Below are positions 1,019 to 45,100 of a stretch of DNA of 64,000 nt, in pieces. This DNA comes from Thermoanaerobaculia bacterium (GTDB lineage: Bacteria > Acidobacteriota > Thermoanaerobaculia > Multivoradales > JAGPDF01): contig CAVQJN010000001.1 of NCBI GenBank assembly GCA_963712855.1, positions 742,747 to 806,746 of the forward strand, read 5' to 3'. Numbering within the stretch: position 1 is the first letter of the stretch; the number at the start of each line of letters is the position of its first letter. Made by a program: the position numbers and the translations under genes. The notes under the pieces were generated by a model. The model saw nothing but the letters and a program-made list of their open reading frames with translations, did not search any database and was not told where the DNA came from.

Positions 1019-1022
1019 ACCG

Positions 1023-2228: not shown

Positions 2229-2271
2229 GGTCGGTTCCCACCGAGGTCGCGACGCGAGTCGGCAGCCCGCA

Positions 2272-3988: not shown

Positions 3989-3991
3989 TCC

Positions 3992-5383
<1,392 letters not shown>

Positions 5384-24576: not shown

Positions 24577-25545
24577 TCAGGGGGCAACGACGGTCGCCGA
24601 CCACCAGGAGGTGTCGCCACTCTCGAAGCCATCCGACATCAGGGGCGGGATGTAGAGATTGTAGAGCGAGTTCTCAATCATGGTCGCGTGGTCCTGGAAG
24701 AAGATCGCCCAGACGGAACCGGTGAACCAGACACCGAGCACGTGGGCGCTGCTCACCAGCACGGGCCCGGCCCTCGCCACGAAGACGACGGCGCCCGCTC
24801 GTCCGTTGAGCTCGGGGTGGTCGAGAAAGGTGGAGTTGCCGCTGTTCGTCCCCGCCGATGCGAAATGCTCGAAGCTCCACCCCAGCGAGCTGGCGATGTC
24901 CGGGGACTTCGCGATCAGGACGTTGAAGAACACTCCCGTGGGCATCAGGTCGAGGCAGCAGCTATCTGCGTTCTCGGTGACGATGGAGTAGCTGGGACTA
25001 CCGTAGACGATCGAGGAGTGGTGGTTGAACGACCCGCCAGGAATCCCCTCGAAGGTAGCGGTGTGGGTGTAGAGCATCAGCGTCGAGCTGGGACAGAGCA
25101 GACAGTCCGGATCGATCGGATTCAGCCGCGTCGCGCGGCCTGAGGTGTTGATGTCGTTCGATAGGTGGACGAAGGAGAGCGAATCGCCGCCCATCACGAG
25201 GACGTTGAACGCCGCGCCCACCGGAATCGCCGTGGCGTCCTCGTTGTAGATATACCAACTGCCGCCACCCGAGTAATTGGCGATGAAGACCACGCCGACC
25301 TCGTGGTCGTTGTAGACGCCAGAACCGAGCGGCGGATTCCAGTTCTGGGTGACCAGCAACCGCGCGTCCGGGTTGTCGTTGAGCTGCGGATGGTCGAGCT
25401 TCGTGTACTCGTCGTGGGACCCCGAGATGTTCGCGGCGGTTGCGACGTGCACGTACGAGACGAGACTCTCCCCGGCAACCGGCGCGACCGACAGGACCGA
25501 CAACGCCGCCAGGATCAGCCCGGCCAAACCCGCGTTAGCTTTCAT
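24577..25545 (-). CDS. Secreted protein with internal tandem duplication and C-terminal DGFESG..W motif
   Basis: Signal peptide MKANAGLAGLILAALSVLSVAPVAG; two related ~130-aa halves (LDHPQLNDNPDARLLV... / LDHPELNGRAGAVVFV...); C-terminus ...MSDGFESGDTSWWSATVVAP. Confidence 0.5.
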   Translation of the reverse strand: MKANAGLAGLILAALSVLSVAPVAGESLVSYVHVATAANISGSHDEYTKLDHPQLNDNPDARLLVTQNWNPPLGSGVYNDHEVGVVFIANYSGGGSWYIYNEDATAIPVGAAFNVLVMGGDSLSFVHLSNDINTSGRATRLNPIDPDCLLCPSSTLMLYTHTATFEGIPGGSFNHHSSIVYGSPSYSIVTENADSCCLDLMPTGVFFNVLIAKSPDIASSLGWSFEHFASAGTNSGNSTFLDHPELNGRAGAVVFVARAGPVLVSSAHVLGVWFTGSVWAIFFQDHATMIENSLYNLYIPPLMSDGFESGDTSWWSATVVAP

Positions 25546-26852: not shown

Positions 26853-27482
26853 TCATCGCAGCCACGCCAGAGACGCGACTTCGTCAAATCGATCGACGTG
26901 ACGGCCGCAGCGCGGACAGCGGGTGACCCAGCCGGCGACCCCCTGCGCCGCGCGCCAGAAGGCGGGTGGTGCGCAGAACCAGTGCCACTCGAGCCGGGAT
27001 GGGAGGGTCAGGCAGGGCCAGCAGGGGCGTACCCGGGATCGCTGGCGGGCCCGCCGCTCCGCGGTCGGTTCGATGGGACGGACGACCCAGTCGGCGAGCG
27101 CATGCTCGGCGAGCCAGTCGTCGGGCACCAGCCGGCCGACTCGTTGCGGAAAGATGCGGACGAAGAAGGTGCCCGCGGCCCGGGTGGGGAGAAGGGCGTA
27201 GCCCGAGATCAGAGCCCGCGCTTGCGCTAGCCGGCGCGCTCGCACGATCAGAGAGCGAAAGCGCCGGGGCGACTGCGCGCCGCCGAAGTATGCGGTGTCG
27301 TCGTCGTGCACGAAGACGACGCCCGCGACGCCCGGCCGGCGGGCGAGCTCGCCCGCCGCCACGCGCAGGGCCTCCAGGTGGAGCTCGCGATCTCCTGGCA
27401 ACCGCACCTCCACGACAATCGCGTCCCCCGCGAGACGCCGGAAGTCGGCCGCGAGATCCTCGCTCAGCGGCCGGTTCGTCAA
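26853..27482 (-). CDS. Hypothetical protein with C-terminal CxxC zinc-ribbon-like motif, translationally coupled to the upstream AAA+ ATPase
   Basis: 209 aa. Its start codon overlaps the AAA+ gene stop (27479-27482). C-terminal C-W-P-C ... C-P-R-C-G arrangement. No recognised domain. Confidence 0.35.
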   Translation of the reverse strand: MTNRPLSEDLAADFRRLAGDAIVVEVRLPGDRELHLEALRVAAGELARRPGVAGVVFVHDDDTAYFGGAQSPRRFRSLIVRARRLAQARALISGYALLPTRAAGTFFVRIFPQRVGRLVPDDWLAEHALADWVVRPIEPTAERRARQRSRVRPCWPCLTLPSRLEWHWFCAPPAFWRAAQGVAGWVTRCPRCGRHVDRFDEVASLAWLR

Positions 27483-28862
27483 TCCGCCTCCTCCGCTGCG
27501 AGGAGGCCGAACCCCGCCGTTCGCCGCTCCGGCGCCCGGCCGACGAGATCCAGCGCGCAGAGCAGGTGGACTCGCAACACTTCGACGCGCTCCATCGCCT
27601 CGCCCTCACGCTCCAGCACCGCGGCGGCGATGGCGCCATTGGCGACCTCCTCGATCTGCGCCCCCGTCGAGCCGTCCAGTCGTTCGACCGCCCAGTCGAG
27701 GTCTTCGTCCGCGACGCCGACGTGGCGGAGCCGGTGGCCGAGCAGCCGCCGACGGGTCTCCGCGTCGGGGGGGCCGATTTCGAGGATCTGGTCGAAGCGC
27801 CCCGGCCGGTTGCGCACCGCCTCTTCCACCACCTCGAGCCGGTTGGTGGTAGCGATGGTCAGGATCGGCTGATCGCCGGCTGCCCCGTCGAGCTCGTTCA
27901 TCAGCGGCCCGAGCAGGTCGTTGCGGAAGCCGCGATCTCGGCTCTGCGCGATGAGGTCGAGGTCTTCGAGGAAGATCACGGTGGGCGCCAGCCAGCGGGC
28001 GATTTCGAAGACCTCGTGCACGTGGTCGGGCTTCTGCAGATCGGCGGGGGTCACCCAGAGAAAGGTGCAAGAGAGACTCTCCGCCAACTCGCGTCCGATC
28101 GAGCTCTTGCCAGTGCCGGGCGGGCCCGCCAGGATGAGGCCGGCACGGCGCCGCAGCCCGAGCCTCTGGGTGGCCGGGGAGGTGAAACGCCGGACCGCGA
28201 AGTCGAGGCGCTCGCGCAGGAGCCCGGGTAGGAAGAGCCGCTCGTCTTCGGAGCTTCCTGCGGCTCGGCGCCATGGTTCCGTCAGCGAGCAGCTTGCGGC
28301 CACGCAGCACGTTGTGCGCGCGCGTGAAGTCGAGCCAGTCCTCGAGCAGCTTCGGCTGGCGGTCGAGCTGCAGGGCGGCGATGCCGATCTCGTTGGGGCC
28401 GAAGCTCTCGGCCTCGAAGCGCACGACGCAGCGCTCGCGGTCACGTTCGAGGAAGAGCTGGAGGTTCTTCGGGATCTCGAGCCAGAGGCTCGGGTCGAGC
28501 CTGAGGCTCTCGAACTCGGGTGGCACGACCGAGGAGTTGCCGCGCGGCCCCTCTTCGAATCCGATCGCGCCGCGAATCCGCCACCCCTGGCTGTCGAGGA
28601 ACGCCTCGAGGGAGCTCCAGAGGAGCGCTGCGCGCAGCTTGCCGAAGAGCATGTAGAGCTTGATCGAGCCGTCGCTGCCGAGGAACTGCGAGGTCAGCCG
28701 GGTGAGCAGGCAGTCTTCCTCCTCGAAGCGGAGGAGCTTGAGGAACTCCTCGGAGCTGCGGCGATGGATCGGGGGCACGGGCTCCGCACCGGGCGGGATG
28801 GCGCGCAGGGCTTCGCGCCCGGCTTCGCGTTGCTCGTCAGGGATCTCGGGGATGGGTTGCAT
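27479..28862 (-). CDS. AAA+ ATPase (classic clade) with ~200-aa N-terminal domain; frameshifted near 28255-28270 in this assembly
   Basis: C-terminal half carries Walker A GPPGTGKS, Walker B IFLEDLDL, sensor-1 TTN and RNRPGRFDQ (arginine finger region). The N-terminal half (MQPIPEIPDEQ...KLLADG) is in the other frame (ORF 27606-28958). One gene with a 1-nt indel. Confidence 0.6.
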
Positions 28863-28942
28863 GGCGTTCTTCCTTTCGCCGCGCAAACTATCCGCCGACC
28901 TCAGACAAACCCTGTCCGACCGCTTGTGGGAGGATCTCCGTC

Positions 28943-29893
28943 GTGCCCCGGAGGACACTGCACCGCGCGGGCGATTTCCTCTCGCAGCCGGCCCGGCTAC
29001 TCGAGATCGACGCCCGCCTGCGCGCCGGCCGCCACCCGAGCCACGCCGAGCTGGCGAGCGAGCTCGGCGTCTCGGCCCGCACGATCCAGCGCGACTTCGA
29101 CTACCTCCGCTTCACCCTCGGCGCCCCCCTCGAATACGACGAGCGCCGCAAAGGCTGGAGCTACACGGAAGACACGTACTCCCTCCCCGCCGTCTATCTG
29201 ACGAACGACGACGTGCAGGCCCTCCTCCTGGTCCGCCAGGCGGTCGAGCAATACCAGGGCACCCCTTACGCCGCCGCCGCGCATCACGCCCTCGAGCTCA
29301 TGGAACGCGCCCTCCCCGCCCGCGAACGCCTCGCCGCAGAGTGGGTCAGCCAACGCGTCGCCTTCACCGACTTCCCCGCCGCCACCATCCGCCCGGCCGT
29401 CTGGAAGGCTGTGCTCGAGGGACTCCGCACCTCACACACCCTCGCTCTGACCTACCAACGCCCTGGCGCCAAGCCCCAACGGCGGCGCGTCGATCCCTAC
29501 GGGCTGATCGTTTCGGAAGGCGACTGGTATCTCTACACGTACTCGCACCACCACAAGGCGCGCCGAACGTTCTTGCTGGCGAGAATGAAGCGGGTCACGG
29601 TCCTGCAGGCGAGCTTCGACCTGCCGGAGGGCTTCTCGCTTGCGCGCTACGTGCACGAGGGCTTCGGTGGCTTACAGGCCGACGGCATGCGAGCGCGGTG
29701 GGTACGAATTACGTTCACCGAGAATGCGTCGCGGGTCGCCGCCGAGCGCAAATGGCATCCGGACCAGAGGATGAGCTGGGACACACGAAAGCGGCTTACG
29801 ATCGAGTTCGAGGTACGAGCGCCATTCCGCCTGGCGAGACGCCTGCTCGAGTGGGAGAACAGGATCGAAGCGCTCTCTTGGCACGCCGGATAG
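28943..29893 (+). CDS. WYL-domain transcriptional regulator (HTH-WYL-WCX architecture)
   Basis: N-terminal HTH (HAELASELGVSARTIQRDFDYL), central WYL domain (RVDPYGLIVSEGDWYLYTYSH) and a C-terminal WCX-like extension. Divergent from the AAA+ operon. Confidence 0.8.
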   Translation: MPRRTLHRAGDFLSQPARLLEIDARLRAGRHPSHAELASELGVSARTIQRDFDYLRFTLGAPLEYDERRKGWSYTEDTYSLPAVYLTNDDVQALLLVRQAVEQYQGTPYAAAAHHALELMERALPARERLAAEWVSQRVAFTDFPAATIRPAVWKAVLEGLRTSHTLALTYQRPGAKPQRRRVDPYGLIVSEGDWYLYTYSHHHKARRTFLLARMKRVTVLQASFDLPEGFSLARYVHEGFGGLQADGMRARWVRITFTENASRVAAERKWHPDQRMSWDTRKRLTIEFEVRAPFRLARRLLEWENRIEALSWHAG

Positions 29894-29984: not shown

Positions 29985-31028
29985 ATGCGATACATCGGAG
30001 TCGATCTTACGTCCGGTCTCGTTGACCACCCCAGGCCAGTAGACCTGGCAATCATCGAAGACAATAATGTGGAGTTTCAGCAGTGGGACTGGCCACAAGA
30101 TCAGCAAGTGATATTCAATGCTGGACCCGCGCTGGCCAACCACTTCCTGCAGAACATCGACTGGAATCCAGACGAGATGCGGCTCGCGATTGACGGCCCT
30201 CAAGCTCTCGCGACGATAGGGCATTTTGTGCGGATTGCTGAACTGGAGCTCGCAACTCCGGGCCGGACACCCGACGAAATGCCTCTCCTTGATCGACCAT
30301 TTGGCAGCTACATCCAATCCAGCATCTTCCTCTTCCGAGCACTACTGGCTTTCGGCGAGCGCATTTGCCTCCCGAACAATGCCAATCACTTGGACGCTTC
30401 GCTCTATGAAATATTTCCAGGCAGTGAGTGGCAAGTGCTCTTTGGCCGCCGACTTCCGAAGAAGGCCTCAAGAGCCGGTCGAGAGGCTAGGGCCACGCTC
30501 TTCCGCCAACTTGGACTCGATCTTCCACATCTGCTGCCATCTGCCGACCAGAACGATGCGCTGATTGGCGCATGTCTCCTTCGGTGGGCCGAACACGAAC
30601 CGCAGCGCGTCCGATTAGTTGGGGAGGTAGCTCAGGAGAACCCCCTGCGAGAAGGATTCATCCTTCATTCAGCCCGACGGGCGAATGAGCTGGACCGTGA
30701 AGACGTTGAGGTGGCAGAACCTGCCGACATGGAGGTTCCGGATTGGGCAGCAGACGTGCACTACATCAGATTCACAGACAACGGATGTGTCTGGCGGAAG
30801 CCGCCAGAGAATCGGTGGCTGGAAATCGGAGTAACGTACACATTGGAGGCCTGTGGCCAACATTTCACGCTCTCCCCACTCGGCGGCGACGTGGCATGGG
30901 GGTGCGACCCAACGGTCCAGGCGCTACTCGGTCAGCTCGGGATCGCGCCGATTCCTCAGCATCTGAGTGCTGCGAACTCGATCAGTGTTGCTGTTGCCGT
31001 GATCAATGAAGAGGAGGCTGGTGGGTGA
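29985..31028 (+). CDS. Predicted RNase H-like fold protein (DUF429-like)
   Basis: N-terminus MRYIGVDLTSG...VDLAIIED and a later ...ADQNDALIGACLL resemble the carboxylate-bearing strands and helix of RNase H-like/DUF429 proteins. Low-GC segment. This is a weak assignment. Confidence 0.4.
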   Translation: MRYIGVDLTSGLVDHPRPVDLAIIEDNNVEFQQWDWPQDQQVIFNAGPALANHFLQNIDWNPDEMRLAIDGPQALATIGHFVRIAELELATPGRTPDEMPLLDRPFGSYIQSSIFLFRALLAFGERICLPNNANHLDASLYEIFPGSEWQVLFGRRLPKKASRAGREARATLFRQLGLDLPHLLPSADQNDALIGACLLRWAEHEPQRVRLVGEVAQENPLREGFILHSARRANELDREDVEVAEPADMEVPDWAADVHYIRFTDNGCVWRKPPENRWLEIGVTYTLEACGQHFTLSPLGGDVAWGCDPTVQALLGQLGIAPIPQHLSAANSISVAVAVINEEEAGG

Positions 31029-31228: not shown

Positions 31229-34200
31229 ATGAATAGGCAGCCGGGGTCATCTCAGTCCGTCCGTGTTCTCCTGATTCTGCTGATAGCGTTCGTCGGATCG
31301 CAGACAGCAGCGAGATCCGACCCGCCTCAGTTGTATGCGTTCACAGGCGATCCTACGCCCCTCGGGACTCGCACTCCCTTGATCCTGATTCATGGTCTTC
31401 AACCGAATTGCGACGAGACATACGAAGGAGTCTGGGCAAACTTCGTGTGGAACGAGTGGGCGAACAACGTCGAACTCCGACAGAAGACAAAAGTGTACCT
31501 ATTGAGGTACGAAACCGTCCAAGGAAAACTGGCATCCGGCGACCCTACAAACGTTGCATCTGTGGCTACAGCTCTCGGTGAGCAACTGGAGTCGAGTCAA
31601 CAATTCCCTGAGTTCTCGGGAAAGGACTTTCTCTTAGTCGCGCACTCCTTGGGTGGTCTAGTCGCCAGGTCCTTCATGCAGCAATTCCGATTCTCTGATG
31701 GAACTCTGGGGGGGGCCCGAGTCCTCAGGCTGATTACTTTAGCCACTCCACACCATGGCAGCCCAATTGCCAACATAGCTGAAGGCTACCCATCGGTCTG
31801 GTGCCTCACTCCTAGCAACGGATTTCTTCAAGACCTTTCATGGGATGCGTACGATGGCTTCCTCTTCCTCTTGGATCCGTGCAACCCCTGGTTAGGAAGC
31901 TTGAATATCAGCGGAGGCGCGCCCTCATATGCCACTCAAGCGTGCGCATATCAGGACGTACCTGGAGAAGATGGTGAGTTCTCGAAAATCTTCGCCTACG
32001 GCGGCGAGACGACACCTCTCGCTGCCACGCTCGATTTCGTTCTCTCGAATTCACTATTGAATGCGCGCGGATACGAGCACAATGACGGTCTAGTGCCGCT
32101 TGGTAGCGCTCTATTCGACGGGGTATCCCTTGGCGCCAAACGCACGGTAATCGCTCCCTGTAACCATGGCCAGATCGTTGGTGGATCGTGCAGCGTCATC
32201 TATGACAACGGAGATATTGCCAGTGTCTTTGACGCGGTGGCCAATGATCTGCTAGCAGCGCTTAACGAGGATCCAACACCAGTCATCATGTCGGTAAGCC
32301 CCAGCGTCTTGGCAACTGAGCCACTTCCTCAGACACAGCGTTTGACGATTTCAGGGAGTGATTTTGCGCCTGACGCCACTCTGACGTTCTTTGACGGAAG
32401 TTCCCACTATGTGGGGCGATCTCCCATTCCGCCAGTACAGCCTAACCAACTTCAATACGACATTGCTGCGGGCCCGTACGAAGGTGCTTGGACTGTCCAG
32501 GTGGTTAACGGCACGAAGGCTTCGAACGAATTTCCGTTCTGGGTTGTCGACACGCCGGGCAACGACGACACAGCACCACCCGCACCGATCGACCCACAGA
32601 TGTCACCAGCATCCTGGGGCAACCCAATTCTCTTCTACCTCGACTGGGCGAATCCAGCCGATCCCTCTGGAGTCACCAAAGTCTGGTGGAAGTGGGACAG
32701 CCCGCCCACATTTCAGGGTGACGGCATTGGACTTGCCCTCCCACTCTTCAAACCGCTCCCCGTTGCACCTGTCACAGAGGGTGCGCGAACGATCTATTTC
32801 TGGCTTGAGGATGGGAGTGGAAACTCCGATTTCCACAACTGGGCCAGTGCCACCGCTTACTACGATGTAACTGCGCCGTCGCTCTCGATTGACGAGAGTC
32901 CGGACGGTTCCCCCATTCAGATCGCCAGCAGCCAGCTGATCTTGCACGGGTCGGCCACGGACAACCTCAGCGGCGTCGGTGGCATTAGCTGGATGAGCAA
33001 CCGCGGTGGTACAGGAGGCGCAACGGGGACAACCAACTGGTCAACGTCATCGATCCTGCTTGCTCCAGGCGACAACGTGATCACTGTCTCAGCCACTGAC
33101 CGCGCGGGCAACTCGGCATCCGAATCGCTTACCGTGACCTCGACCGCCCAGCCATCGGCCTGCGGTCCCTGGGAGTGGGACTCACCAGTGTCGAACGTGG
33201 CGAGCGCCGCTGCCTATGGGGATGGCAAGTGGGTGGCAGTCGGCTACAGCGGTGCGATCTGGACGAGTCCGGATGGGGTCACTTGGACTCCGCAGACGAG
33301 CTCAGTGGCCCAGAGCCTCAACGACGTCATCTGGACCGGCAGTCAGTTTATGGCGGTCGGTAACAACGACACGATCCTGACCAGCCCGGATGGGGTGAAC
33401 TGGCAGGTCGTGAGGTCCTCATCGGTCTTTAACTACTACGGCGTGGCCTGGAACGGATCGCAGTATGTGCTCGTGGGTCGTGGGGCCTCCCCGACAACGA
33501 CGAGCCGGGGTTGGATGTGGACGAGCTCGGACGGCGCGGTCTGGACACAACGCTTCTACGACCCTGACACCAACTACAGATCACCGATCTGGAGCGGGAC
33601 GTTGTTCGCCCTGCTCGACAACAAGGGCAACGTCTACACCAGCCCGGACGGCGCCAACTGGACCAGCCAAAACATCTCGGCCACGGGATTGAACGACGTC
33701 GCCTGGAGTGGCACCGAGTACCTCATCACCCAGGGCACCACCGTCTACACCAGCCCCGACGCCGTCACCTGGACTCCTCACTCCATCACTCCTTCGCTCA
33801 GCCACGTGATCTGGGCCGGCAACCGCTTCGTAGCAACCAGCGGTCCTCAGATCTGGTCGAGTGCGGACGGGCTGAGCTGGACATTGGAGACCACCGACGG
33901 CAATGGCGACATCAACGACCTTGCCTGGAGTGGCAACCAAGCCATCGCGGTCAGTGGTGGAGAGTCCTTCTGGAGGCAGAGCTGCACGCTTCCCGCTGCG
34001 GATTTCCGCTTCAGTCCGGCTACACCGTTGCGCAACCAGCCGGTCGCCTTCTTCGACCAGTCCACCGCTAGTCCGACGGCCTGGAGCTGGGACTTCGGCG
34101 ACGGCCAGGGAAGCTCGCAGCAGGATCCGACCCACACCTATGGCCAAGGTGGCGTCTACTCGGTGAGCCTCGCCGCGACCAACGCCTTCGGCACGGACAG

Positions 34201-37200
34201 CACCCAGCAGCAGATCACCGTCTCGCTACCGACCAGCCCGTGCAGCCCCTGGGAGTGGGACGCCCCGGTGGCGAGCCCGGTCAACGCGGCGACCTACGGC
34301 AATGGCCAGTGGGTGGCGGTGGGCAATTCCGGATGGATCGGGACGAGCCCGGATGGGGTGACCTGGACGCAGCAGACGAGTCCGGTCACGACCAAGCTGC
34401 TCGATGTCATCTGGACGGGCAGCCAGTACATGGCAGTCGGCTTCGCCGGCACGATCCTGACGAGCCCGGACGGAGTCACTTGGCAAGCCAGCAACAGCAT
34501 CTCCGGCGTTTACGACCTCTATAGCGTAGTCTGGAGCGGCTCACAGTACCTGCTCGTGGGAAGACTCCCGAGCACCACGAGGAGCTATGTTTGGACGAGC
34601 TCGGACGGTCACGTCTGGGCCCAACGTCTCTATGGACCTGACACCACGTACCTCCATCCGATCTGGAGTGGGACGCTCTTCGTCCTGCTCGACAACAAGG
34701 GCAACGTCTCCACCAGTCCGACGGGCGCGAACTGGACGACCCAGAACATCTCGGCCAGCGGATTGAACGAAGTGGCTTGGAGCGGCACCGAGTACCTGAT
34801 CACCCAGTGGACCACGGTCTACACCAGCCCCGACGCCGTCACCTGGACTCCTCACTCCATCACTCCTTCGCTCAGCCACGTGATCTGGGCTGGCAACCGC
34901 TTCATTGCCGCCGGAGGAACCGGGACGACACAGATCTTCTCCAGTCCCGATGGACTCAACTGGACCTTGGAGACCACCGACGGTAATGGCGGCATCAACG
35001 ACTTGGCTTGGAGTGGCAATCAAGCCGTGGCGGGTGCAGGAGCTTCTTTCTGGACCCAGAGCTGCACAATTCCGACAGCCGACTTCCGCTTCAATCCGGC
35101 AGCACCTCTACGCAACCAACCTGTCGCCTTCTTCGACCTCTCCAGCGCCAATCCAACGTCATGGAGCTGGGACTTTGGTGACGGCCAGGGGAAGCTCCCA
35201 GCAGGATCCGACCCACACCTATGGCCAAGGTGGCGTCTACTCGGTGAGCCTCGCCGCGACCAACGCCTTCGGCACGGACAGCACCCAGCAGCAGATCACC
35301 GTCTCGCTACCGACCAGCCCGTGCAGCCCCTGGGAGTGGGACGCCCCGGTGGCGAGCCCGGTCAACGCGGCGACCTACGGCAATGGCCAGTGGGTGGCGG
35401 TGGGCAATTCCGGATGGATCGGGACGAGCCCGGATGGGGTGACCTGGACGCAGCAGACGAGTCCGGTCACGACCAAGCTGCTCGATGTCATCTGGACGGG
35501 CAGCCAGTACATGGCAGTCGGCTTCGCCGGCACGATCCTGACGAGCCCGGACGGAGTCACTTGGCAAGCCAGCAACAGCATCTCCGGCGTCTACGACCTC
35601 TATAGCGTGGTCTGGAGCGGCTCACAGTACCTGCTCGTGGGAAGACTCCCGAGCACCACGAGGAGCTATGTTTGGACGAGCTCGGACGGTCACGTCTGGG
35701 CCCAACGTCTCTATGGACCTGACACCACGTACCTCCATCCGATCTGGAGTGGGACGCTCTTCGTCCTGCTCGACAACAAGGGCAACGTCTCCACCAGTCC
35801 GACGGGCGCGAACTGGACGACCCAGAACATCTCGGCCAGCGGATTGAACGAAGTGGCTTGGAGCGGCACCGAGTACCTGATCACCCAGTGGACCACGGTC
35901 TACACCAGCCCCGACGCCGTCACCTGGACTCCTCACTCCATCACTCCTTCGCTCAGCCACGTGATCTGGGCTGGCAACCGCTTCATTGCCGCCGGAGGAA
36001 CCGGGACGACACAGATCTTCTCCAGTCCCGATGGACTCAACTGGACCTTGGAGACCACCGACGGTAATGGCGGCATCAACGACTTGGCTTGGAGTGGCAA
36101 TCAAGCCGTGGCGGGTGCAGGAGCTTCTTTCTGGACCCAGAGCTGCACAATTCCGACAGCCGACTTCCGCTTCAATCCGGCAGCACCTCTACGCAACCAA
36201 CCTGTCGCCTTCTTCGACCTCTCCAGCGCCAATCCAACGTCATGGAGCTGGGACTTTGGTGACGGCCAGGGGAGCTCCCAGCAGGATCCGACCCACACCT
36301 ATGGCCAAGGTGGCGTCTACTCGGTGAGCCTCGCCGCGACCAACGCCTTCGGCACGGACAGCACCCAGCAGCAGATCACCGTCTCGCTACCGACCAGCCC
36401 GTGCAGCCCCTGGGAGTGGGACGCCCCGGTGGCGAGCCCGGTCAACGCGGCGACCTACGGCAATGGCCAGTGGGTGGCGGTGGGCAATTCCGGATGGATC
36501 GGGACGAGCCCGGATGGGGTGACCTGGACGCAGCAGACGAGTCCGGTCACGACCAAGCTGCTCGATGTCATCTGGACGGGCAGCCAGTACATGGCAGTCG
36601 GCTTCGCCGGCACGATCCTGACGAGCCCGGACGGAGTCACTTGGCAAGCCAGCAACAGCATCTCCGGCGTCTACGACCTCTATAGCGTGGTCTGGAGCGG
36701 CTCACAGTACCTGCTCGTGGGAAGACTCCCGAGCACCACGAGGAGCTATGTTTGGACGAGCTCGGACGGTCACGTCTGGGCCCAACGTCTCTATGGACCT
36801 GACACCACGTACCTCCATCCGATCTGGAGTGGGACGCTCTTCGTCCTGCTCGACAACAAGGGCAACGTCTCCACCAGTCCGACGGGCGCGAACTGGACGA
36901 CCCAGAACATCTCGGCCAGCGGATTGAACGAAGTGGCTTGGAGCGGCACCGAGTACCTGATCACCCAGTGGACCACGGTCTACACCAGCCCCGACGCCGT
37001 CACCTGGACTCCTCACTCCATCACTCCTTCGCTCAGCCACGTGATCTGGGCTGGCAACCGCTTCATTGCCGCCGGAGGAACCGGGACGACACAGATCTTC
37101 TCCAGTCCCGATGGACTCAACTGGACCTTGGAGACCACCGACGGTAATGGCGGCATCAACGACTTGGCTTGGAGTGGCAAGGAGTTGGTTGCCGGAGGAG

Positions 37201-38381
37201 GCGCTGGCGCAATCGGAACGCAGGGCTGCAACGATGCTGTGGATCTCCAGGTCACTGGGCCCTCGGTGAGCTCCACCTCTCCAGAACCCGGTTCAGATCT
37301 TGTCGTCTACATGACCGCCTCGAACCTCGGCACAGATCCCAGCAATGCAACTACGCTGGTTTACTACCGCTCATCGGATGCCGTGATCTCCTCCGCCGAT
37401 ACGGAGATCGGTCAGGACTCGATCTCCAGCTTGGCCGGTGGGGCGAGCTCTCCACAGAATCTGCAGACAACTGCCCCGAGCAGCGACGGGACGTACTGGT
37501 TTGGAGCCTGCATCCTGCCAACTGGCGATGAGTCCAATGTATCCAACAATTGTTCGACCGGAGTTGAGGTTGATGTGGTGTCCCACCCCGACCTCGTCGT
37601 CATTGACCCGTCAGTCGACAACGCGGCCCCAGCACAGGGACAGCAGATCACTATCCACGCGACCGCCAAGAATTCAGGAATCGCCGCATCAGCTGCGACA
37701 AACCTCACTTACTACCTCTCCCCGGACCCGACAATCACTTCTGGCGACACGTCGCTCGGTCAGAAATCCGTCCCAGCGCTGTCGCCAAATGGCACCTATC
37801 CGGACAGCCTTCAGACTACTGCGCCGCCCGCCACAGGCAACTATTGGCTTGGCGCATGCGTTCAGTCTGTCAGTGGTGAGACCAATGTCTCCAACAACTG
37901 TTCGACCGGCGTGGAGATTCAAGTTGGGCCCGCTTGCACAGACGATGAATTCGAGCTCCTCGGGAGCGACAACTCTGATGACACCTGCTACGGCGCCAGC
38001 GTCGTGCCAGGAGTCGCGCAGCAACATCTTCACTGCGACGAAGACTGGGTTCGCTTCGTGCCAGATGCAGGAGCTACCTACCGCATCGAGACTTCATCCC
38101 TAACTGGTGGAGCCGACACAACACTCGCGCTACACCAAGACTGTGGTCAGCAGCAGTTGGCGTTCAACGACAACTTCACAGGCCTCGCATCACGAATCGA
38201 CTGGACCGCTACAGGTACCGCGCCGATCGATATCAGAATCCAAGAAAGGGCCGGTACTTACGCAACTGGGGAGGGCTACACCATCTCCGTGTCTTGCATC
38301 GCCGGATGCGCGCCCGTCCCAATCTTCGCCGACGGCTTCGAGGACGGCACTCTTTGCGCATGGTCGAACGGAGGATGCTAG
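31229..38381 (+). CDS. Giant secreted multidomain protein: alpha/beta-hydrolase (lipase-like) + Ig-like domains + 4x [BNR/Asp-box beta-propeller + PKD] + 2x CARDB + PPC-like C-terminal domain; single frameshift near 35192
   Basis: Signal peptide; ILIHGL...VAHSLGGLVAR (GxSxG serine hydrolase). Repeated YG(D/N)G(K/Q)WVAVG...TSPDGVTWT (SxDxGxTW Asp-boxes) blocks, each followed by PKD (WDFGDGQ...THTYGQGGVYSVSLAATNAFG). CARDB-like segments at 37230-37900. C-terminus ...IFADGFEDGTLCAWSNGGC. ORFs 31229-35605 and 34905-38381 differ by a 1-nt insertion (GGGGAAGCT versus GGGGAGCT in the other copies). Confidence 0.75.
34221..37180 (+). repeat. Near-perfect tandem repeat, unit 1080/1081 bp, ~2.7 copies (preceded by a more diverged copy from ~33150)
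   Basis: The same >100-nt strings recur at 34264, 35345 and 36425 (offsets 1081 and 1080). Each unit encodes one beta-propeller plus PKD module. Confidence 0.9.
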
Positions 38382-38657: not shown

Positions 38658-39917
38658 GTGCCCCTCGCACCGAGACCCTTCATGTCATCTCTTCTTCAGA
38701 CTGAGCTCGCCTCGCGACACCTGTGCAATGCTTGCATTGTTGACCGACAGTTCCTAAGGGGCACCCTCCAGCAGCAGCGAGCTAAAGCTCGACATGCACT
38801 CCAACTGGTCGATCTCTACTGTGGAGCCGGGGGACTCTCTCTGGGAGCCGCGATTGCGGCGCGGCGCTACGCCACTAACGTCGACGTGCGTCTAGCCGCC
38901 GACTCGTGGCAGCCAGCCATCGACGTTTATTGCAGCAATTTCGAGATTGAGCAGGCACGAGTCGCCGCGGTAGAGGATCTCTTCGATGGCGAGCTTGGCT
39001 CTACCCGCCGAACTCGAAGTGAGAGAGCGCTACGCGACAGTGTCGGTCCGGTCGGTCTTCTGGTTGGTGGTCCGCCCTGCCAGGGATACTCGGATCTCAA
39101 CAACCACAGCCGCCGGCGTGATCCCAGGAATCGCCTGTATGCCCGAATGGCGAGGGCCGCAGAGGTCCTGACGCCCAAGGTGATCGTGATCGAAAACGTG
39201 CCAGCTGTTATCCACGACGACGAGAACGTCGTCGCCGTCACGAGCTCGGCGCTCGATGACGCTGGCTACGATGTAATGGGACAAGTCTTCGACATGAGCG
39301 CACTTGGCTTGCCCCAGACTCGCAGACGCCATCTGCTCCTTGGAGTCCAGCGAGGTTTGGGCAGGGCGAGAGTCATGCTCGACGCCATCGCCCCAAACTG
39401 CCCTGTCCACCAGCCAAGAACTGTTCGGTGGGCGATCGAGGATCTCGCAAGGCTGGTGCCGAAGAGTCTCTTCGACCAGCCCAGCCGCAACAGTAGAGAG
39501 AACTCCGCGCGCATCCAATGGCTCATGACCCATGACGCATACGATCTGCCCAATCGAATGAGGCCGCGCTGCCACCGCGGTGAGCATTCCTACAAATCGA
39601 TGTACGGGCGCCTTCGCTGGGACGCGCCTGCGCAGACGATCACGACAGGTTTCGGATCGATGGGACAGGGGCGATACGTGCATCCGAGCGAGGCCCGGAC
39701 GATCACACCGCATGAAGCGGCGCGTCTCCAGTCGTTCCCGGATAGCTTCTCGTTCGCGGCGGCACCCAACCGTGGCGCTCTCGCCCAATTGATCGGCAAC
39801 GCCGTTCCCCCACTCTTCGCCGCTGCCGTGATCTCCACCATCCTCTCGACGCTATTTCCCGGGTCGGCTCGCCGCATCACACGCCGCCCCCCCCAAGGCA
39901 CCGCACGCAATGGCTAA
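38658..39917 (+). CDS. dcm: DNA (cytosine-5)-methyltransferase
   Basis: Motif I LYCGAGGLS, motif IV GGPPCQGYS, motif VI ENV, motif X QLIGNAVPP. 419 aa. Confidence 0.9.
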   Translation: MPLAPRPFMSSLLQTELASRHLCNACIVDRQFLRGTLQQQRAKARHALQLVDLYCGAGGLSLGAAIAARRYATNVDVRLAADSWQPAIDVYCSNFEIEQARVAAVEDLFDGELGSTRRTRSERALRDSVGPVGLLVGGPPCQGYSDLNNHSRRRDPRNRLYARMARAAEVLTPKVIVIENVPAVIHDDENVVAVTSSALDDAGYDVMGQVFDMSALGLPQTRRRHLLLGVQRGLGRARVMLDAIAPNCPVHQPRTVRWAIEDLARLVPKSLFDQPSRNSRENSARIQWLMTHDAYDLPNRMRPRCHRGEHSYKSMYGRLRWDAPAQTITTGFGSMGQGRYVHPSEARTITPHEAARLQSFPDSFSFAAAPNRGALAQLIGNAVPPLFAAAVISTILSTLFPGSARRITRRPPQGTARNG

Positions 39918-40338
39918 TCCGGGCACGCCGCGCGCCTCCTCTCTTCAGGCAGCGAAGAGGATGCGTGCAACCCGACAGCGGGACACCAAAGCAGAGATGG
40001 CCATTCGTTCAGCCCTTCACCGGATGGGTCTGCGGTATCGAGTGCAGGCGAGTCCGATTCCCGGTTCGAGGCGCCGTGCAGACATCATCTTCCTGAAGGA
40101 GAGGGTTGCCATCTTCGTCGACGGCTGCTTCTGGCACGGCTGTCCGGAGCATGCCTCGACGCCCCGCGTCAATCGCGCTTGGTGGGTGGAGAAGCTAGCG
40201 GCGAATCGACGCCGCGACCGAGATACTGACCATTGCCTGGCGGCGGCCGGTTGGACAGTCTTGCGCTTCTGGGAACACGAGGATCCTCTCGCCGTCGCCA
40301 ATGGGGTCCGAAACCTGGTGATCTCCAAGCGGAAGTGA
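39910..40338 (+). CDS. vsr: Very-short-patch repair endonuclease Vsr
   Basis: FVDGCFWHGCPEH...W and the overall 142-aa Vsr pattern. Overlaps the dcm stop by 8 bp. Confidence 0.9.
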   Translation: MANPGTPRASSLQAAKRMRATRQRDTKAEMAIRSALHRMGLRYRVQASPIPGSRRRADIIFLKERVAIFVDGCFWHGCPEHASTPRVNRAWWVEKLAANRRRDRDTDHCLAAAGWTVLRFWEHEDPLAVANGVRNLVISKRK

Positions 40339-40362
40339 ACTCTGCTCGAGGGGCCTTCGCAG

Positions 40363-42189
40363 TCAGTTCAACCCGAAGTACCGCTTGACCAACTCTCGGT
40401 CGAGTAGACGGTTCTGGAACTCGCAGCTCGTCTCCGGCAGCAGCGAACACGCGTGGCAGGCGGCCAGGTTGAGCGATCCCGGCCCCTGCCCGGCGCTCTC
40501 GCTGCAAATCGGATCCGAGGCGCACCACATGGCGTCTTCCAGAGCACGCTTAAGTATTGGTTCCAGTCTGCCCGGTTTCCCAAGTTCAACGAGGCCCCCG
40601 AGCGTACCGTCCGCGTCCCCAGCCGCGGTATAGAGGAGGATCCCGCCCATTTGCACCCCCGCGACTACCGGCGCAGAGTAGATCCGCTCTCGGATCGATG
40701 AGGCGCCATAGCCCGCCTCGAAGGCGAGGCGTTTGATCAGGAGATGGGCCAGCGTGTGGAGGAAGACGAGCTCGACGGTCGGGGGGAGGACGCACCTCCC
40801 CCATTCGTTTGCACGGCGGAGGAGATCGGCGTGCCGGTGATCAACGTGCTCGGAGAGTCCCGCCAGTTGGTCGAGATCGACCGTCAGGAAGATCCCTTCG
40901 CCATGGACGCGGAAAGCGGGGAGCCAATCCAGCGGCCGAAGACTCAGCGCCGACGGTGGCGCAGCCGAATCGTCGATGCGATGGAACCCAGTGAGTACCC
41001 TCGTCTCGGCTAATCGCTCGACGAGGCCCACGTGGGAGAAGCAGCCTCGCACCGGCTCCGAGTACTCCCGGAGGTCTTGGGGGCGGCACACTAGGAGGTC
41101 TTGGACGTCGCGACGCTCCTGGTGGAGCGCCCTGTACTCGGCATCGCGGAAGGCGATCTCGCTCTCCGGATCGTCGATCCCGCGGCCCGCCCGCAAGGCA
41201 TCGTAGGCGGCCCGGAGTTGCTCGGCGTCGACGCCTTTCATTGCGGCGATCACCCGGAAGGTACGGATATCGGGATCTCGCTCCGAGTCGAGTAGATCTC
41301 GAACTCTCGGCTCCTCGAGGATCTGTGCCACACGCGAGGAGTACGGAGGAATCAGGATCGAGCTCGCAGTTTTCGGGAAGTAGACGTTGGACGCGCCTCG
41401 TTGCAGCGCGAGGAGGTTCGACGACCCTCCAGGTTCCATGGGTCCGTTGCACGTCTCGACACCGTCCGGACCCAGCCATGGTCTCCTCCCCCGACATCGC
41501 AAGCCACGCACGCCCGTCGGGCTCGTCGAGCCCATGAGAGAGCGACGTTTGCCGCATGTCGCGCACTCGACCAGCAAGCCACCGAGACCTCCCATCTTAG
41601 TGGCGAAGAAGTAGAGTCGAGGCGGACTGCACCCGGTGTCCCATTCGAGAGCGCGATCCCTCGCCGAGTGAACCCATTCGTTCCACGGGAAGTCGTCGAT
41701 GTGTCCCTGGCGACAGGCGACGACGAATCGGAGCGGCAGCATGCGCGGCCGGCGGCGGTCAGGGAGGGTCCCGCAGGGCGGCTTGCCTCGCAGCCTCGGC
41801 GACGGGTGTGAGTTGCCGCACCGAGGCGGATTGAGCGCGAAGAGCTCCACCCGCTCCAGCCAACGGCAGCGGGGACAGAAGTGCCACTGGGGAAACCGAA
41901 CGTACGGGAGCGGTGCCATCGTTCCTGGTGCGACTCCACGCTCCGGCCTGGGCGGCGGCGTCAGGAAGTGACGCACCCCAAGCCGCGCGGCAAGTCGTTG
42001 GTCGAACAGCTTCGGCGCTTCGTTCGTCGGCCAGACGTCGATACCTGCCGCCATTAGTGCCTCGTCCTCGAACTCAACGATCGCCCCGACGCCGAACGGG
42101 ACGATCGACTGTGTGCGGCGCGTCGCGCGGCGCGTCACACGGCACCCCCTCGACCGGCGCCGTAACGCGGGACGACGTCGGCTCCGCAC
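40363..42189 (-). CDS. DUF1998-domain protein (DISARM DrmB-like)
   Basis: C-terminal ...GSLNLAACHACSLLPETSCEFQNRLLDR is the DUF1998 Cys4 motif, and additional Cys clusters occur in the N-terminal half. Last gene of the minus-strand operon; the start may be slightly internal to 42189. Confidence 0.7.
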   Translation of the reverse strand: MRSRRRPALRRRSRGCRVTRRATRRTQSIVPFGVGAIVEFEDEALMAAGIDVWPTNEAPKLFDQRLAARLGVRHFLTPPPRPERGVAPGTMAPLPYVRFPQWHFCPRCRWLERVELFALNPPRCGNSHPSPRLRGKPPCGTLPDRRRPRMLPLRFVVACRQGHIDDFPWNEWVHSARDRALEWDTGCSPPRLYFFATKMGGLGGLLVECATCGKRRSLMGSTSPTGVRGLRCRGRRPWLGPDGVETCNGPMEPGGSSNLLALQRGASNVYFPKTASSILIPPYSSRVAQILEEPRVRDLLDSERDPDIRTFRVIAAMKGVDAEQLRAAYDALRAGRGIDDPESEIAFRDAEYRALHQERRDVQDLLVCRPQDLREYSEPVRGCFSHVGLVERLAETRVLTGFHRIDDSAAPPSALSLRPLDWLPAFRVHGEGIFLTVDLDQLAGLSEHVDHRHADLLRRANEWGRCVLPPTVELVFLHTLAHLLIKRLAFEAGYGASSIRERIYSAPVVAGVQMGGILLYTAAGDADGTLGGLVELGKPGRLEPILKRALEDAMWCASDPICSESAGQGPGSLNLAACHACSLLPETSCEFQNRLLDRELVKRYFGLN

Positions 42190-45100
42190 TCCACGTCAAC
42201 GTTCCGCATCGAGCTGAGCGTCTCCCAACTCTCCTCCTCGCCCTCTCTAGCCACGGTCCCGGCGACCCGCATGAGGACTCGCATGTCCTGGGGTGGGCCG
42301 AAGGTTCCCCACGATGCGGCAGAGCTCTCCTCCCACTCCTGGAGCCGCCTCGCCAAGACCTCTTCGAACTCCCGGTAGTGCTCTGGGTCGATGCGCCTCA
42401 CCCGCTCGCGGATCCGGTCGATCGCTGCGGCGAACGCTGGATCCGAAGCATCGAAGTCCCTCGGCGTGGCCCAGCCGGCGGCGTGCCGGCCGGCGATCAC
42501 CAGTACGGCGTGGAGAGCTCGGTCAAGCGACGGCACGGAATAGGGCGTGACGCTCGTCGGCTCGACGTCGCGATAGAACGCCTCGTGGAAACTGCGGAAC
42601 TGCTCGTAATGCGAGCGGTCTCGCGGCCGGTTGGCATTGTAGAGCGTGAGAATCAGGCCCGGGCCCTTGCTCGAGCGCCCGACGCGGCTGCTCGCCTGGA
42701 TGTACTCCGCGGTGCTCTTCGGCTGGGTCACGATCATCATCAGTCCGAGTCGGTCGACGTCGACGCCGACCGAGATCATATTGGTGGCGAGGACCGTGTC
42801 CAGGGCCTGGTTGCCCCATTGCGCGCCCTTCGTGTACGGCACCTCCAATCGCTTCAAGATCCTCGGGATCTCCTCCTGGTCCTTGCGGCTCGTCAGCTCC
42901 TCTGCGATCCGCATATAGCGGCGCTCGTCGGCGCCGAGCCCGTAACGACGGTGCATGGTCGGCAGGAATTCCGGGATGTCCGAGGTGATGAAGGTCGCTG
43001 CCCGCCCGAGCTCGCGCAGGCTCGAGTAGTATTGGATCAGGGTCCAATAGGGATCAACGATCCCGTCGGGCGCCGCGCCCCCGGCAACGATCGGCACGCC
43101 CTGCTGCATGGCGACGACGGCCCGGATCTGGGCCGTCAGCGGCGAGGAGGCCGCTGTCGGCAACAGGCCGAGGTAGATCCTCCCTGGCTGGTTTGCGTCT
43201 TCGATCGCAAAGTAGGAATCCGAGGCCTCCAGCCCGGGAGGCGGAAACTGGAAGAGCTCGCGGTCGAAGAGCGCCCTCGCCTGCCGGCCCGCGTGCCGGA
43301 TGGTCGCTGTGGAGGCGATGATCTTCGGTCGGTGCGTGCCGCGCGAGCAGAGATGGTCGATGATGCCCTCGTATGCGCCGACGATCGACCCCAGCGGCCC
43401 CGAGATCAGGTGGAGCTCATCCTGGATGATGAGATCGGGCCCTGCGCCGATCCCGAAGATTGCCCCGGCCTGCTCACGCCAAGCGAGCATCGCAAACTTG
43501 TCGACCGTACCGATGAGGAGCGTCGGCGGGGCGCGATAGATCGATTCGTCGACCACGCAGATCGGGAGGCGATTTGCGATCTCGGAGAAGGGACAGGGCC
43601 CAACCTCGTCTCCTCGACTCGGGCAGACGAAGATCTGCCGGCCGCCACGGTCGAGGTATCCCAGGCGCTCCAGGTTGTCCATCTCCGTGCCACACCATGG
43701 ACACGAGAGCAGTTGGAACGGGTTCTTGGCATCCCAGGCACGTGCCTGCAGTCGGCTGAGCATTCGAAGCGCATCTCCCTCGTTGTTCGGAGTGAGTGAC
43801 AACCCGACCCAGAGTCCGATGGAGATCGGTTCGATGCCGAAGCTCTCTGGCGCCTCGCGTCGGATCAGCTCGCAAGCGCACACCAGCGACGCCGCTCGCT
43901 GGAACTGCTGGCTCGTCAGGAGGCGCAAGGTGTAGCGCATCAAAACTCGACAACCCCGGCGCTCGGGATCGTCGAGCCGACCGCGAAGAATTGCGAAGGC
44001 TGAGGCACCCAAGTACGCCTCGGTCTTGCCGCCGCCCGTCGGGAACCAAATGAGGTCCACGAGCTCGCGATTCGGCGGCCCGAGCTCGCGAGCCACCCAA
44101 GAGTCGGGGTCGCTCACGAGACCAGGCAGCACCATCAGCAGGAAGCCGAGCTGGAACGACCGCCAGTGGCCAGAGCGTGACTCCCAATCGGACCGATAGT
44201 CCCGCTTGCCGGGAAGCGGAACCCAGGGGTCGTCGAGCTTCCGTCGCAATCGGGAGTGATAATGCTGCATCAGCATCGCCCGGTTCATGGCCATGAAGGC
44301 GCTCATCGATCTCAGGTCCGACTCCAGGAGCTCGATACCGCTCCGCATCCTCCCCAGCGCCTCTCGACAGCGCTCGACGTTCGAGCACGCGACCGGCTGC
44401 AATCGGTCCTCGAGATCCACGACCCGCGCTTCCAGGTCAACGATCCACGCTTCGTACTCGTGGCAGAACTCGTAGAGGGCCGCCGGGATCTCGCGGCCCG
44501 GATCGCCGTCGCAATCGCCTGCCAAGAACTGCATGCTCAGATAGCGCTCCCCGCTCGCCTTTGGCACGATCGGGGCGACCTCGACCACCGGTATCGTCGC
44601 CGTGCGTAGCTCCGTCGCTCGCTCGCCTCGGCAGGAGGTCCAGTCCGCGGCACAGCCGTGACCGATGGCGAAGACGCGGCGCTCTCTGTAGAGCATCTCG
44701 AGAGCCAGTTCCTCGAGCTCGTCGCTTCGGCCCTCCGGGCTTCGATACTCGACGAACGCCGGGCGACCGTCTCGTGCACGGACGGAGAGACCGACCTGAA
44801 AGAACATCTGACCTCGTTGCCCCTTCGTGCGGTTGTAGACGCTCAGAGTCACCAGTCGCTGCCCGCTCTCTCGTCGCCGGCTCACGACTCGGAGGCGAAG
44901 ACCGGGCACGACTTCTAGGTCCTGGACCGGTTCAGCCGTGGGATCCACGCTCTGCGGTTCGATTCCCAGTGGCCGGCGATGCCAAGACGTTCGCTCTCGC
45001 CCCTCAATCGTTTCAGTATGGCTATCGTAGACAGCAGCCGAGACCTCGACGACGAGCCCCCCCTCGGGCGGATCCAACAGAAAGCTCAGAGCCATCGCCG

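Follow-up and report, generated by a model that had tools for sequence, protein, structure and literature searches.

Does a single gene for a giant modular hydrolase lie at positions 31229-38381 of the 64,000-nucleotide (nt) window analysed here, a stretch of contig CAVQJN010000001.1 (assembly GCA_963712855.1) of an uncultured, soil-type Thermoanaerobaculia bacterium (Acidobacteriota), and how would such a protein have been put together? The initial annotation described the locus as a lipase-like hydrolase fused to a repetitive, adhesin-like stalk. Its hydrolase, immunoglobulin (Ig)-like, propeller, PKD and CARDB domain calls stand, whereas the intact reading frame, the rarity of the fusion, the Asp-boxes, the module count and the GC figures do not. 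The best reading, to which we give a probability of about 0.65, is that of one gene which, after restoration of its frame, codes for a Sec-exported esterase/lipase of 2,383 amino acids (aa) with an exchangeable binding region. All features of the gene described below lie on the plus strand.

Reading frame of the gene

The initial annotation gave the start as 31229, the stop as 38381 and the protein ending as IFADGFEDGTLCAWSNGGC, all of which were verified. The segment measures 7,153 nt, which is no multiple of three, and the giant protein does not exist as one open reading frame (ORF): two overlapping plus-strand ORFs in different frames cover it, 31229-35605 (1,458 aa, ATG start) and 34905-38381 (1,158 aa). 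Deletion of one base at 35188-35193 joins them into a continuous protein of 2,383 aa, whose numbering is used hereafter. The sequence at this site is GGGGAA, with one base in surplus relative to its sister junctions GGGAA (34103) and GGGGA (36264). The PKD junction sequences are GGCCAGGGAAGCTCG at 34103, GGCCAGGGGAAGCTCC at 35183 and GGCCAGGGGAGCTCC at 36264. The extra base falls within the second PKD domain, in a G4A2 run, and is the sole position at which the sister junctions vary (GGGA versus GGGG). The phase of the GC content at third codon positions (GC3) flips at the same site, and tblastn detects the second PKD domain as two pieces in different frames (35069-35191 and 35187-35315). Neither a stop nor a rare codon is found at the shift, and on its 3' side no stop interrupts the frame for 1,062 codons, in which the domains are intact and GC3 is high in the right phase.

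The public gene call for this locus, P0163 (1,309 aa; window positions 31676-35605), corresponds to the first ORF from Met150 to the same out-of-frame end. Its start is an internal methionine located after the catalytic serine, and the entry is thus both N-terminally truncated and frameshifted. The record stems from the same 1,665,215-bp contig that encodes the PilC protein of the window. It therefore belongs to the same assembly and provides no independent copy of the extra base. A search for such a copy of the gene in GTDB genomes with the hydrolase head gave no relative, and the head profile, run over the metagenomes of the Joint Genome Institute (JGI), reached 36% identity at best.

A consensus error at a repeat junction is favoured over a true mutation as the origin of the extra base, by about two to one. 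This preference is based on the G4A2 run at the sole varying junction position, on the 99.7-100% identity of the flanking repeats and on the 1.67-Mb contig, which suggests long reads. A position that varies among otherwise identical repeat junctions is a typical spot for a consensus or polishing artefact. A programmed ribosomal frameshift was discarded because both sister junctions are in frame and no relative with such a feature was found in the GTDB and metagenome scans. Phase variation was discarded as well, the G4 run being short and the sister junctions in frame.

It is possible, though rather unlikely, that the frameshift is real and that the gene is a recent pseudogene. At most a truncated 1,458-aa product would then be made, holding the head, the Ig domains, two propellers, half a PKD domain and ~137 out-of-frame residues, while the 3.2 kb downstream would be untranslated. 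The domain architecture is compatible with this possibility. The extra base is present both in the sequence and in P0163, with the same out-of-frame tail, the rest of the genes in the window look intact, which indicates that indel errors are infrequent, and the gene is located in a variable region that resembles an island, a setting in which genes often decay. However, P0163 is not an independent record, the 1,062 open codons with intact domains and in-phase GC3 imply that any inactivation was very recent, and the surplus base occupies the single variable position of otherwise identical junctions, where artefacts are typically met.

Signal peptide and hydrolase head

The restored protein starts with a Sec-type signal peptide (aa 1-28, MNRQPGSSQSVRVLLILLIAFVGSQTAA followed by RS; 31229-31312) that has a basic n-region, a hydrophobic core and T-A-A in its translation, and no lipobox cysteine. 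The following segment is a lipase/esterase-like alpha/beta-hydrolase head (aa 29-346; 31313-32266), identified by Pfam, alignment, an AlphaFold2 (AF2) model and Foldseek. Its scores for DUF676 (PF05057; 30.7 bits versus a cut-off of 20.3) and PGAP1-like (PF07819; 26.8 versus 24.3) are above the Pfam thresholds and bear out the hydrolase call. NCBIfam gave no family for the head. The hydrolase domain proper covers ~aa 45-345, more than the ~250 aa first attributed to it. The motif VAHSLGG (aa 137-143) is present as noted initially, but it is of the A-H-S-L-G type, an AxSxG variant, and not GxSxG. The nucleophile Ser140 within it has its codon at 31646-31648. The oxyanion-hole residues H55-G56 are encoded at 31391-31396, D286 at 32084-32086 and H313 at 32165-32167, the latter two being D258 and H285 in the numbering of the alignment. 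In this alignment of 35 sequences the HG pair, the H-S-x-G-G elbow with Ser140, the L-A-T-P-H-H-G motif, Asp286 and His313 are invariant or at least 90% conserved.

The AF2 model of the head has a mean predicted local distance difference test (pLDDT) score of 81.7 and a predicted template modelling (pTM) score of 0.87. Compared by Foldseek with the PDB, it gave 258 matches at E<=1e-3, the best being the lipase BlEst2 (E 6e-11), followed among others by lipases of Pseudomonas, Burkholderia, Proteus and Geobacillus and by phospholipase PlaB. Lipases or esterases account for every one of the top 14 matches and for most of the top 50. At the sequence level, phmmer against the PDB retrieved BlEst2 (E 7e-4) and a lactonizing lipase (E 0.015) whose NDGLV Asp motif is aligned. 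From the triad, the oxyanion hole and the modelled fold, the head is predicted to be a serine carboxyl-ester hydrolase of the DUF676/PGAP1-like type with a complete catalytic site.

BlEst2 of Bacillus licheniformis (PDB 6WPX/6WPY), the closest match of the head both in sequence and in fold (template modelling (TM) score 0.55-0.70), aligns with it over the nucleophile-elbow region and the TPHHGS motif. Both BlEst2 and Thermoanaerobacter EstA3 also carry, like the protein described here, a beta-sandwich straight after the catalytic domain. In EstA3 the beta-sandwich that follows the BlEst2-like esterase is required for long-chain C12-C16 substrates (PMC10816834). The differences are nevertheless large: identity to BlEst2 is 17-18%, the elbow before the serine is A-H-S instead of Y-S, and BlEst2 and EstA3 are proteins of ~450-490 aa with one accessory region, whereas the protein here has ~2,000 more residues made of propellers, PKD and CARDB domains. 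The family I lipases (Pseudomonas/Burkholderia LipA; PDB 2LIP, 1EX9, 9G8U) share with the head the alpha/beta fold, the HG pair and an aligned NDGLV, and are likewise secreted. Unlike them, the protein is multi-domain and has no adjacent Lif-type foldase, and the similarity is marginal (14-19% identity, E 0.015). Assignment to the true lipases of families I.1/I.2 was rejected on account of this marginal similarity and of the neighbours: the upstream ORF at 29985-31028, considered as a possible lipase foldase, has neither a family match nor a signal peptide, and the downstream gene codes for a Dcm methylase.

The conserved cassette and its relatives

Three further domains follow the head, and the initial call of Ig-like domains at this place holds. 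The first is an IPT/TIG-like beta-sandwich (aa 347-445; 32267-32563) whose Pfam TIG (PF01833) score of 19.9 bits is slightly below the cut-off of 20.9; it is kept in P0001, P0166, P0167, P0183 and P0179. The second (aa 446-545; 32564-32863) matches no Pfam or NCBIfam family at E<=1 and is conserved, with phmmer matches of E 5e-32 to 5e-17 in P0166, P0298, P0167, P0274, P0179 and P0276. The third is a bacterial Ig-like domain of the Glucodextran_B/Big_13 type (aa 546-642; 32864-33154) that ends in D-R-A-G-N. It scores 27.1 bits for Glucodextran_B (cut-off 27) and 21.6 bits for Big_13, its homologues scoring higher on the equivalent stretch, and closes the conserved cassette (aa 29-645) at the N-terminus of the protein.

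Compared with 1.84 billion representative sequences, the head retrieves 914 relatives at E<=1e-3. Among the best 150 of them, 85 have at least 600 aa, 55 at least 1,000 aa and 13 at least 2,000 aa. Six long and presumably exported proteins carry the whole of the same cassette (aa 35-645), being collinear with aa 33-671 at 29-41% identity over ~600-670 aa: P0166 (41%), P0167 (40%; its cluster mate P0305 has 2,954 aa), P0179, P0298, P0274 and P0276. Their homology ends at aa 636-671, where propeller 1 starts. What follows the cassette differs from the S-P-D-G-x-x-W propellers with PKD domains found here: Kelch propellers with cadherin-like/Big_9 domains in P0166, P0179 and P0274, and FG-GAP propellers with fn3 domains in P0298. 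Other relatives of the head have NHL propellers (P0001), a Vgb-lyase-like propeller with ASH/HYDIN Ig domains (P0165), PKD domains and a beta-helix (P0005), four BACON and three PPC domains (P0030) or He_PIG and SH3 domains (P0009); CARDB is also among the accessory domains of the examined relatives.

The S-P-D-G-x-x-W propeller was seen in none of 186 head relatives besides the protein itself and, reciprocally, the hydrolase domain was absent from the best 120 of 2,572 propeller relatives. An esterase head placed on a beta-rich binding region is thus, as judged by sequence comparison, a recurrent design of which the exact combination was found only here. The fusion had been considered uncommon, a view that does not agree with the 55 relatives of at least 1,000 aa among the best 150 and their varied propellers and accessory domains. 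A literature search did not find the architecture of a head-TIG-Ig-Ig cassette with a variable propeller. Secreted hydrolases that bear PKD and PPC domains similarly combine a catalytic domain with PKD, CARDB and PPC-like non-catalytic modules. The protein here differs from them in that its repeat unit is a whole propeller plus PKD domain (360 aa) and in that its enzyme is a lipase-like esterase, not a protease or glycosidase.

Propellers, PKD domains and tandem repeats

The region that follows the cassette is lineage-specific, and its first and largest part is built of four propellers separated by PKD domains. Propeller 1 (aa 643-918; 33155-33982) is seven-bladed, is flanked by Cys645 and Cys919, and has 73-79% identity to units 2-4. 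PKD 1 (aa 919-1002; 33983-34234) scores 59.8 bits for Pfam PKD_4 and 51.7 bits for PKD (PF00801/PF18911), above threshold, so that the initial PKD call is sound. Propeller 2 (aa 1003-1280; 34235-35068), which is 100% identical to unit 3 by tblastn, is followed by PKD 2 (aa 1281-1362; 35069-35315), the domain that tblastn finds split across two frames. Propeller 3 (aa 1363-1640; 35316-36149) and PKD 3 (aa 1641-1722; 36150-36395) complete module 3, whose protein sequence is 100% identical to that of module 2, PKD 3 being identical to PKD 2. Propeller 4 (aa 1723-1998; 36396-37223) has 97.5% identity to units 2 and 3, is not followed by a PKD domain and runs directly into CARDB, its unit diverging from position 946 on. 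Four modules of an Asp-box propeller plus PKD had been proposed. The four propellers are there, but there are only three PKD domains and no match to a canonical Asp-box or to BNR.

Each propeller has ~276 aa and is modelled by AF2 with seven blades at pLDDT >90. The blade motif is a seven-residue S-[PS]-D-G-x-x-W that occurs about six times per propeller. The canonical eight-residue Asp-box S-x-D-x-G-x-T-W is absent from all 2,383 aa, and Pfam BNR (PF02012) has no match at E<=1 in the protein. By fold, it is not sialidases that match best but Vgb lyase, YncE, WD40 proteins and Ycf48. Sialidases also have the propeller fold but with six blades instead of seven. A search of NCBIfam with the propeller returned just a meaningless BamI match (23 bits, cut-off 370). 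Propeller proteins of ~600 aa tagged PF25852/DUF6242-like, some of them named 'photosystem II stability/assembly factor-like', have seven blades as here and share the blade consensus W-x-G-x-x-F-V-A-V-G-x-x-G-x-I-x-T-S-P-D-G-x-T-W. They differ in being stand-alone proteins, many of them apparently lipoproteins, with at most 43% identity. Ycf48 (PDB 5OJR, 2XBG) has the top TM score among the Foldseek matches of the propeller (0.58) at 15-16% identity; Pfam PSII_BNR has no match in the protein.

At the DNA level, the large repeats noted initially are confirmed as four direct repeats of ~1,080 nt with start-to-start spacings of 1074-1083, 1081 and 1080 nt. They were located by direct-repeat search and MAFFT, the 1,080-nt period exceeding the limit of Tandem Repeats Finder. 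Three substitutions and one extra base in ~1,080 nt separate unit 2 from unit 3, and one substitution across the first 945 nt separates unit 3 from unit 4. The DNA identity among units 2-4 is 99.7-99.9%, while that of unit 1 to the others is 76-86%. We infer that a 1,080-nt unit was duplicated in tandem very recently to give units 2-4. Long DNA-identical repeats in surface proteins imply copy-number variation. No paralogue of the gene was found within the 64-kb window.

Compositional mosaic

The lower GC content of the head relative to the repeats, reported initially as 52% versus 68%, is correct in direction but overstated: total GC is 54.6% in the head, 63.2% in the repeat block (69.7% in its top 300-nt window) and 58.9% in the tail. 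The mosaic is real at synonymous sites. GC3 is 0.587 in the head, 0.566 in the TIG-like domain, 0.62 in the domain of aa 446-545, 0.72 in the Ig domain, ~0.81 in the propellers (0.82 in unit 1), 0.76-0.83 in the PKD domains and 0.65-0.66 in the CARDB and PPC-like part. A maximum-likelihood (ML) change point falls at codon 548 (GC3 0.586 to 0.805, log-likelihood gain 28.5) and a second one near codon 1926, in the interval of about 1926-2000 (0.87 to 0.66, gain 18.2). The core genes pilT, pilC, pilS and pilR of the window have a GC3 of 0.79-0.89, and it is the propeller block that looks 'native'. The flanks have values of 0.60 (ORF 29985-31028), 0.68 (dcm) and 0.71 (vsr).

Exchange of modules is a reasonable explanation, given the GC3 mosaic and the fact that the homology of the relatives stops where propeller 1 begins. 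The proposal that the gene was assembled by domain shuffling is to this extent upheld, but the low-GC stretch that was to document it starts upstream of the gene, near 29800, and takes in ORF 29985-31028. A different origin of the mosaic, fairly unlikely in our view, is GC-biased gene conversion among near-identical repeats, with the rest of the gene keeping the lower GC3 of a horizontally acquired island. It would be in line with the 99.7-99.9% identity of units 2-4, which denotes homogenisation or very recent duplication, with the low GC3 that ORF 29985-31028, dcm and vsr share with head and tail, and with the change point at codon 548, which does not coincide with the homology end at aa ~645. 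Against it, unit 1 has a GC3 of 0.82 although at 76-86% DNA identity it was not homogenised, and the unrelated propellers that the cassette relatives bear past the same boundary testify directly to exchange.

The proposed role of the protein

The analysis establishes which domains make up the protein and where its modules meet, the conservation of the triad, the fold, how the repeats are organised and the mosaic of base composition; the role that we propose for the esterase with its exchangeable binding region goes beyond these points. The head would cleave ester bonds of a lipid or of an esterified polymer outside the cytoplasm, and the first beta-sandwich may help to bind long acyl chains, by analogy with EstA3 and BlEst2. 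The region of propellers, PKD and CARDB domains would attach the enzyme to an insoluble substrate or to a cell surface and keep it spaced there. This binding region would have been acquired or exchanged by recombination at the junction between cassette and propeller, and the propeller region then enlarged by the very recent duplication of the 1,080-nt unit.

A number of points speak against this proposal. The sequence as given carries the frameshift, its sole other record comes from the same contig and no independent assembly was found. The products PilC, PilR, DrmA, DrmB and Dcm look intact, so that the assembly is not generally indel-ridden, which weakens the consensus-error argument. The copy number of a 1,080-nt repeat with 99.7-100% identity may be mis-assembled. 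Characterised lipases are no more than 14-20% identical to the head, no way for the protein to cross the outer membrane was recognised, and the match of the C-terminal domain to PPC (see below) is sub-threshold. The PKD part of the AF2 model is of low confidence (pLDDT <50), and the PKD call consequently depends on Pfam. The change point at codon 548 lies ~95 codons ahead of the homology end at aa ~645, so that the recombination junction is not sharply defined. We know of no ligand of the S-P-D-G-x-x-W propeller family.

If intact, the protein would be a very large predicted extracellular esterase from Thermoanaerobaculia, a class represented here only by uncultured metagenome-assembled genomes (MAGs), and an example of how enzymes for insoluble substrates are built from a constant catalytic cassette and interchangeable propeller/Ig-type modules. 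Modular secreted hydrolases of this general kind are already known, and what is new is the combination in this variant. Its interest is modest: the swappable propellers and the recurrence of a C-terminal tail add a little to it, and the frameshift and the commonness of such fusions take from it. The locus also holds a lesson for annotation: the giant protein exists only after a one-base fix, and the database holds a truncated, mis-started call.

CARDB domains, C-terminal domain and tail motif

Propeller 4 is followed by the two CARDB domains announced initially (aa 1999-2117 and 2118-2233; 37224-37928), supported by 69.3 bits for Pfam CARDB (PF07705) in two stretches and 47% identical to each other. 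The next domain (aa 2234-2355; 37929-38294) is Cys-rich, as expected from the initial description of a Cys-containing PPC-like domain, but its PPC (PF04151) match of 14.5-14.6 bits (E 0.065-0.069) is below the cut-off of 25.9, and one of seven family members matches. Its PPC-like character is one of motif only, the resemblance being recognised by eye in D-E-D-W..F...G..Y.I....D..L....G..LA.NDD. A profile search of the PDB with this domain returned only noise, and the last 154 aa match nothing in NCBIfam at E<=1. The protein has 26 cysteines in total, which flank every propeller and are paired inside either CARDB domain, a pattern that fits an extracytoplasmic protein. In a search of 5.8 billion clusters the C-terminal domain has six relatives with 55-60% identity. 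The alignment of relatives P0158-P0162 shows that five of the six lack the DGFE..W tail described next and run instead into a ~60-aa extension, TV.T.E.F.A..TITAG..F.V.STG.VTL.AG....L.DGFSV..G.

The protein ends in a tail (38295-38381) that reads PVPIFADGFEDGTLCAWSNGGC before the stop codon and has DGFE-x-G-x-T-x-x-W at no more than five residues from the end. Four other proteins have the same motif at their very C-terminus. One is encoded in the window 6 kb upstream, on the minus strand (24577-25545): a DUF7452 protein (155 bits) of 322 aa with a signal peptide, which ends in PPLMSDGFESGDTSWWSATVVAP. The other three are P0057, a propeller relative ending in ILVDGFESGDTSAWSSAVP, the cassette relative P0179, which ends in LFGDGFESGDTSRWPP with the tail DGFESGDTSRW, and P0157, ending in PIFQDGFENGGLTYWSSWKP. 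By a rough estimate of our own, the strict tail pattern is expected by chance at ~0.05 in the six-frame translation of the window, and a scan for it over 1.1 Mb of other loci gave no further case. No literature was found with the DGFESG tail motif. PEP-CTERM, LPXTG, GlyGly-CTERM, MYXO-CTERM and the C-terminal domain of the type IX secretion system (T9SS) were rejected as identities of the tail, which has no NCBIfam match to them and no hydrophobic helix. The DGFE..G.T..W ending looks like an undescribed C-terminal tag and is put forward as a candidate. Its recurrence on unrelated exported proteins is a testable lead to a possible new sorting tag.

A broader proposal, which we regard as unlikely, joins the two observations. 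The cassette would define an undescribed Sec-exported esterase family that swaps unrelated C-terminal propellers by recombination and thereby retargets one head, and the ending DGFE[SDN]G(D)T..W would be a new sorting, secretion or attachment tag. The set of swapped propellers may then comprise Kelch and FG-GAP propellers after the full cassette, NHL and Vgb-lyase-like ones in other head relatives and the S-P-D-G-x-x-W type here. The tag would have the form hydrophobic-x-DGFE[SDN]G(D)T..W plus two to seven residues, as present in five proteins that are otherwise unrelated or distantly related.

Alternative functions of the enzyme

A very unlikely function of the protein is that of an antagonistic, target-directed (phospho)lipase in which a constant membrane-attacking head is delivered to the surfaces of other cells by exchangeable propellers as 'receptor-binding' modules, in the manner of polymorphic toxins with reversed polarity or of the PGAP1-like effectors Tle4/TplE of type VI secretion systems (T6SS). 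Tle4/TplE belong to the DUF676/PGAP1-like esterases and have their Pfam membership and serine-hydrolase motif in common with the head. PGAP1-like domains are known in antibacterial T6SS phospholipases (PMC9846239), the phospholipase PlaB is among the fold matches of the head, relatives differ in their C-terminal propeller type through a swapping like that of conflict systems, and the gene lies within a defence/variable island. Unlike Tle4/TplE, however, the protein has its enzyme at the N-terminus behind a Sec signal, not T6SS, PAAR, VgrG or Rhs trafficking domains, and a T6SS context is missing, no T6SS gene having been seen in the window. It is followed by the gene of the Dcm methylase and not by a small immunity-like gene, and in polymorphic toxins it is the toxin that varies and not the part that binds. 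Membership in the class of polymorphic toxins or T6SS Tle effectors was rejected on the basis of the Sec signal, the N-terminal enzyme and the neighbours, which are a WYL regulator, ORF 29985-31028 and Dcm/Vsr. That the protein is chiefly a structural adhesin or surface-layer component with a vestigial head is most improbable: identical tandem repeats with PKD, CARDB and Ig-like domains are typical of adhesins and the head makes up just 13% of the protein, but the family as a whole has conserved the triad together with the oxyanion hole and the LATPHHG motif, and the constancy of the head, when everything past aa 645 varies, argues for selection on the enzyme.

Genomic context

The gene is preceded by those of an IetA-like AAA ATPase (27479-28444, minus strand) and a WYL/helix-turn-helix (HTH) regulator (28943-29893, plus strand), and by ORF 29985-31028 (plus strand). 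The latter codes for 347 aa with no signal peptide and no Pfam or PADLOC family. A shift in minus-strand GC3 phase near 28250-28350, between the overlapping ORFs 27606-28958 and 27479-28444, denotes either a second frameshift or two genes. Neither a lipase foldase nor a T6SS or immunity-like gene is adjacent to the esterase gene.

Directly downstream is a DISARM class-2-like defence locus (38658-50421). It codes for DrmMII/Dcm (38658-39917) and Vsr (39910-40338) on the plus strand and, on the minus strand, for DrmB (40363-42189), DrmA (42135-45419), a NERD/UvrD-like helicase (45416-47182) and a DrmE_C-containing protein (47170-50421). Past this locus lies a tRNA-Ala(ggc) gene (51399-51474, minus strand) that is a possible island boundary. 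A second low-GC patch at 17695-19602 (minus strand; GC 0.566, GC3 0.55) contains an ORF of 635 aa with no Pfam match and may be another acquired segment. A tRNA-SeC gene is found at 8024-8123 (minus strand). The start of the window (11-5383) is occupied by type IV pilus genes coding for a PilT/B-like ATPase, PilC, PilS and PilR, of which PilC has 81% identity to PilC of Thermoanaerobaculia MAGs.

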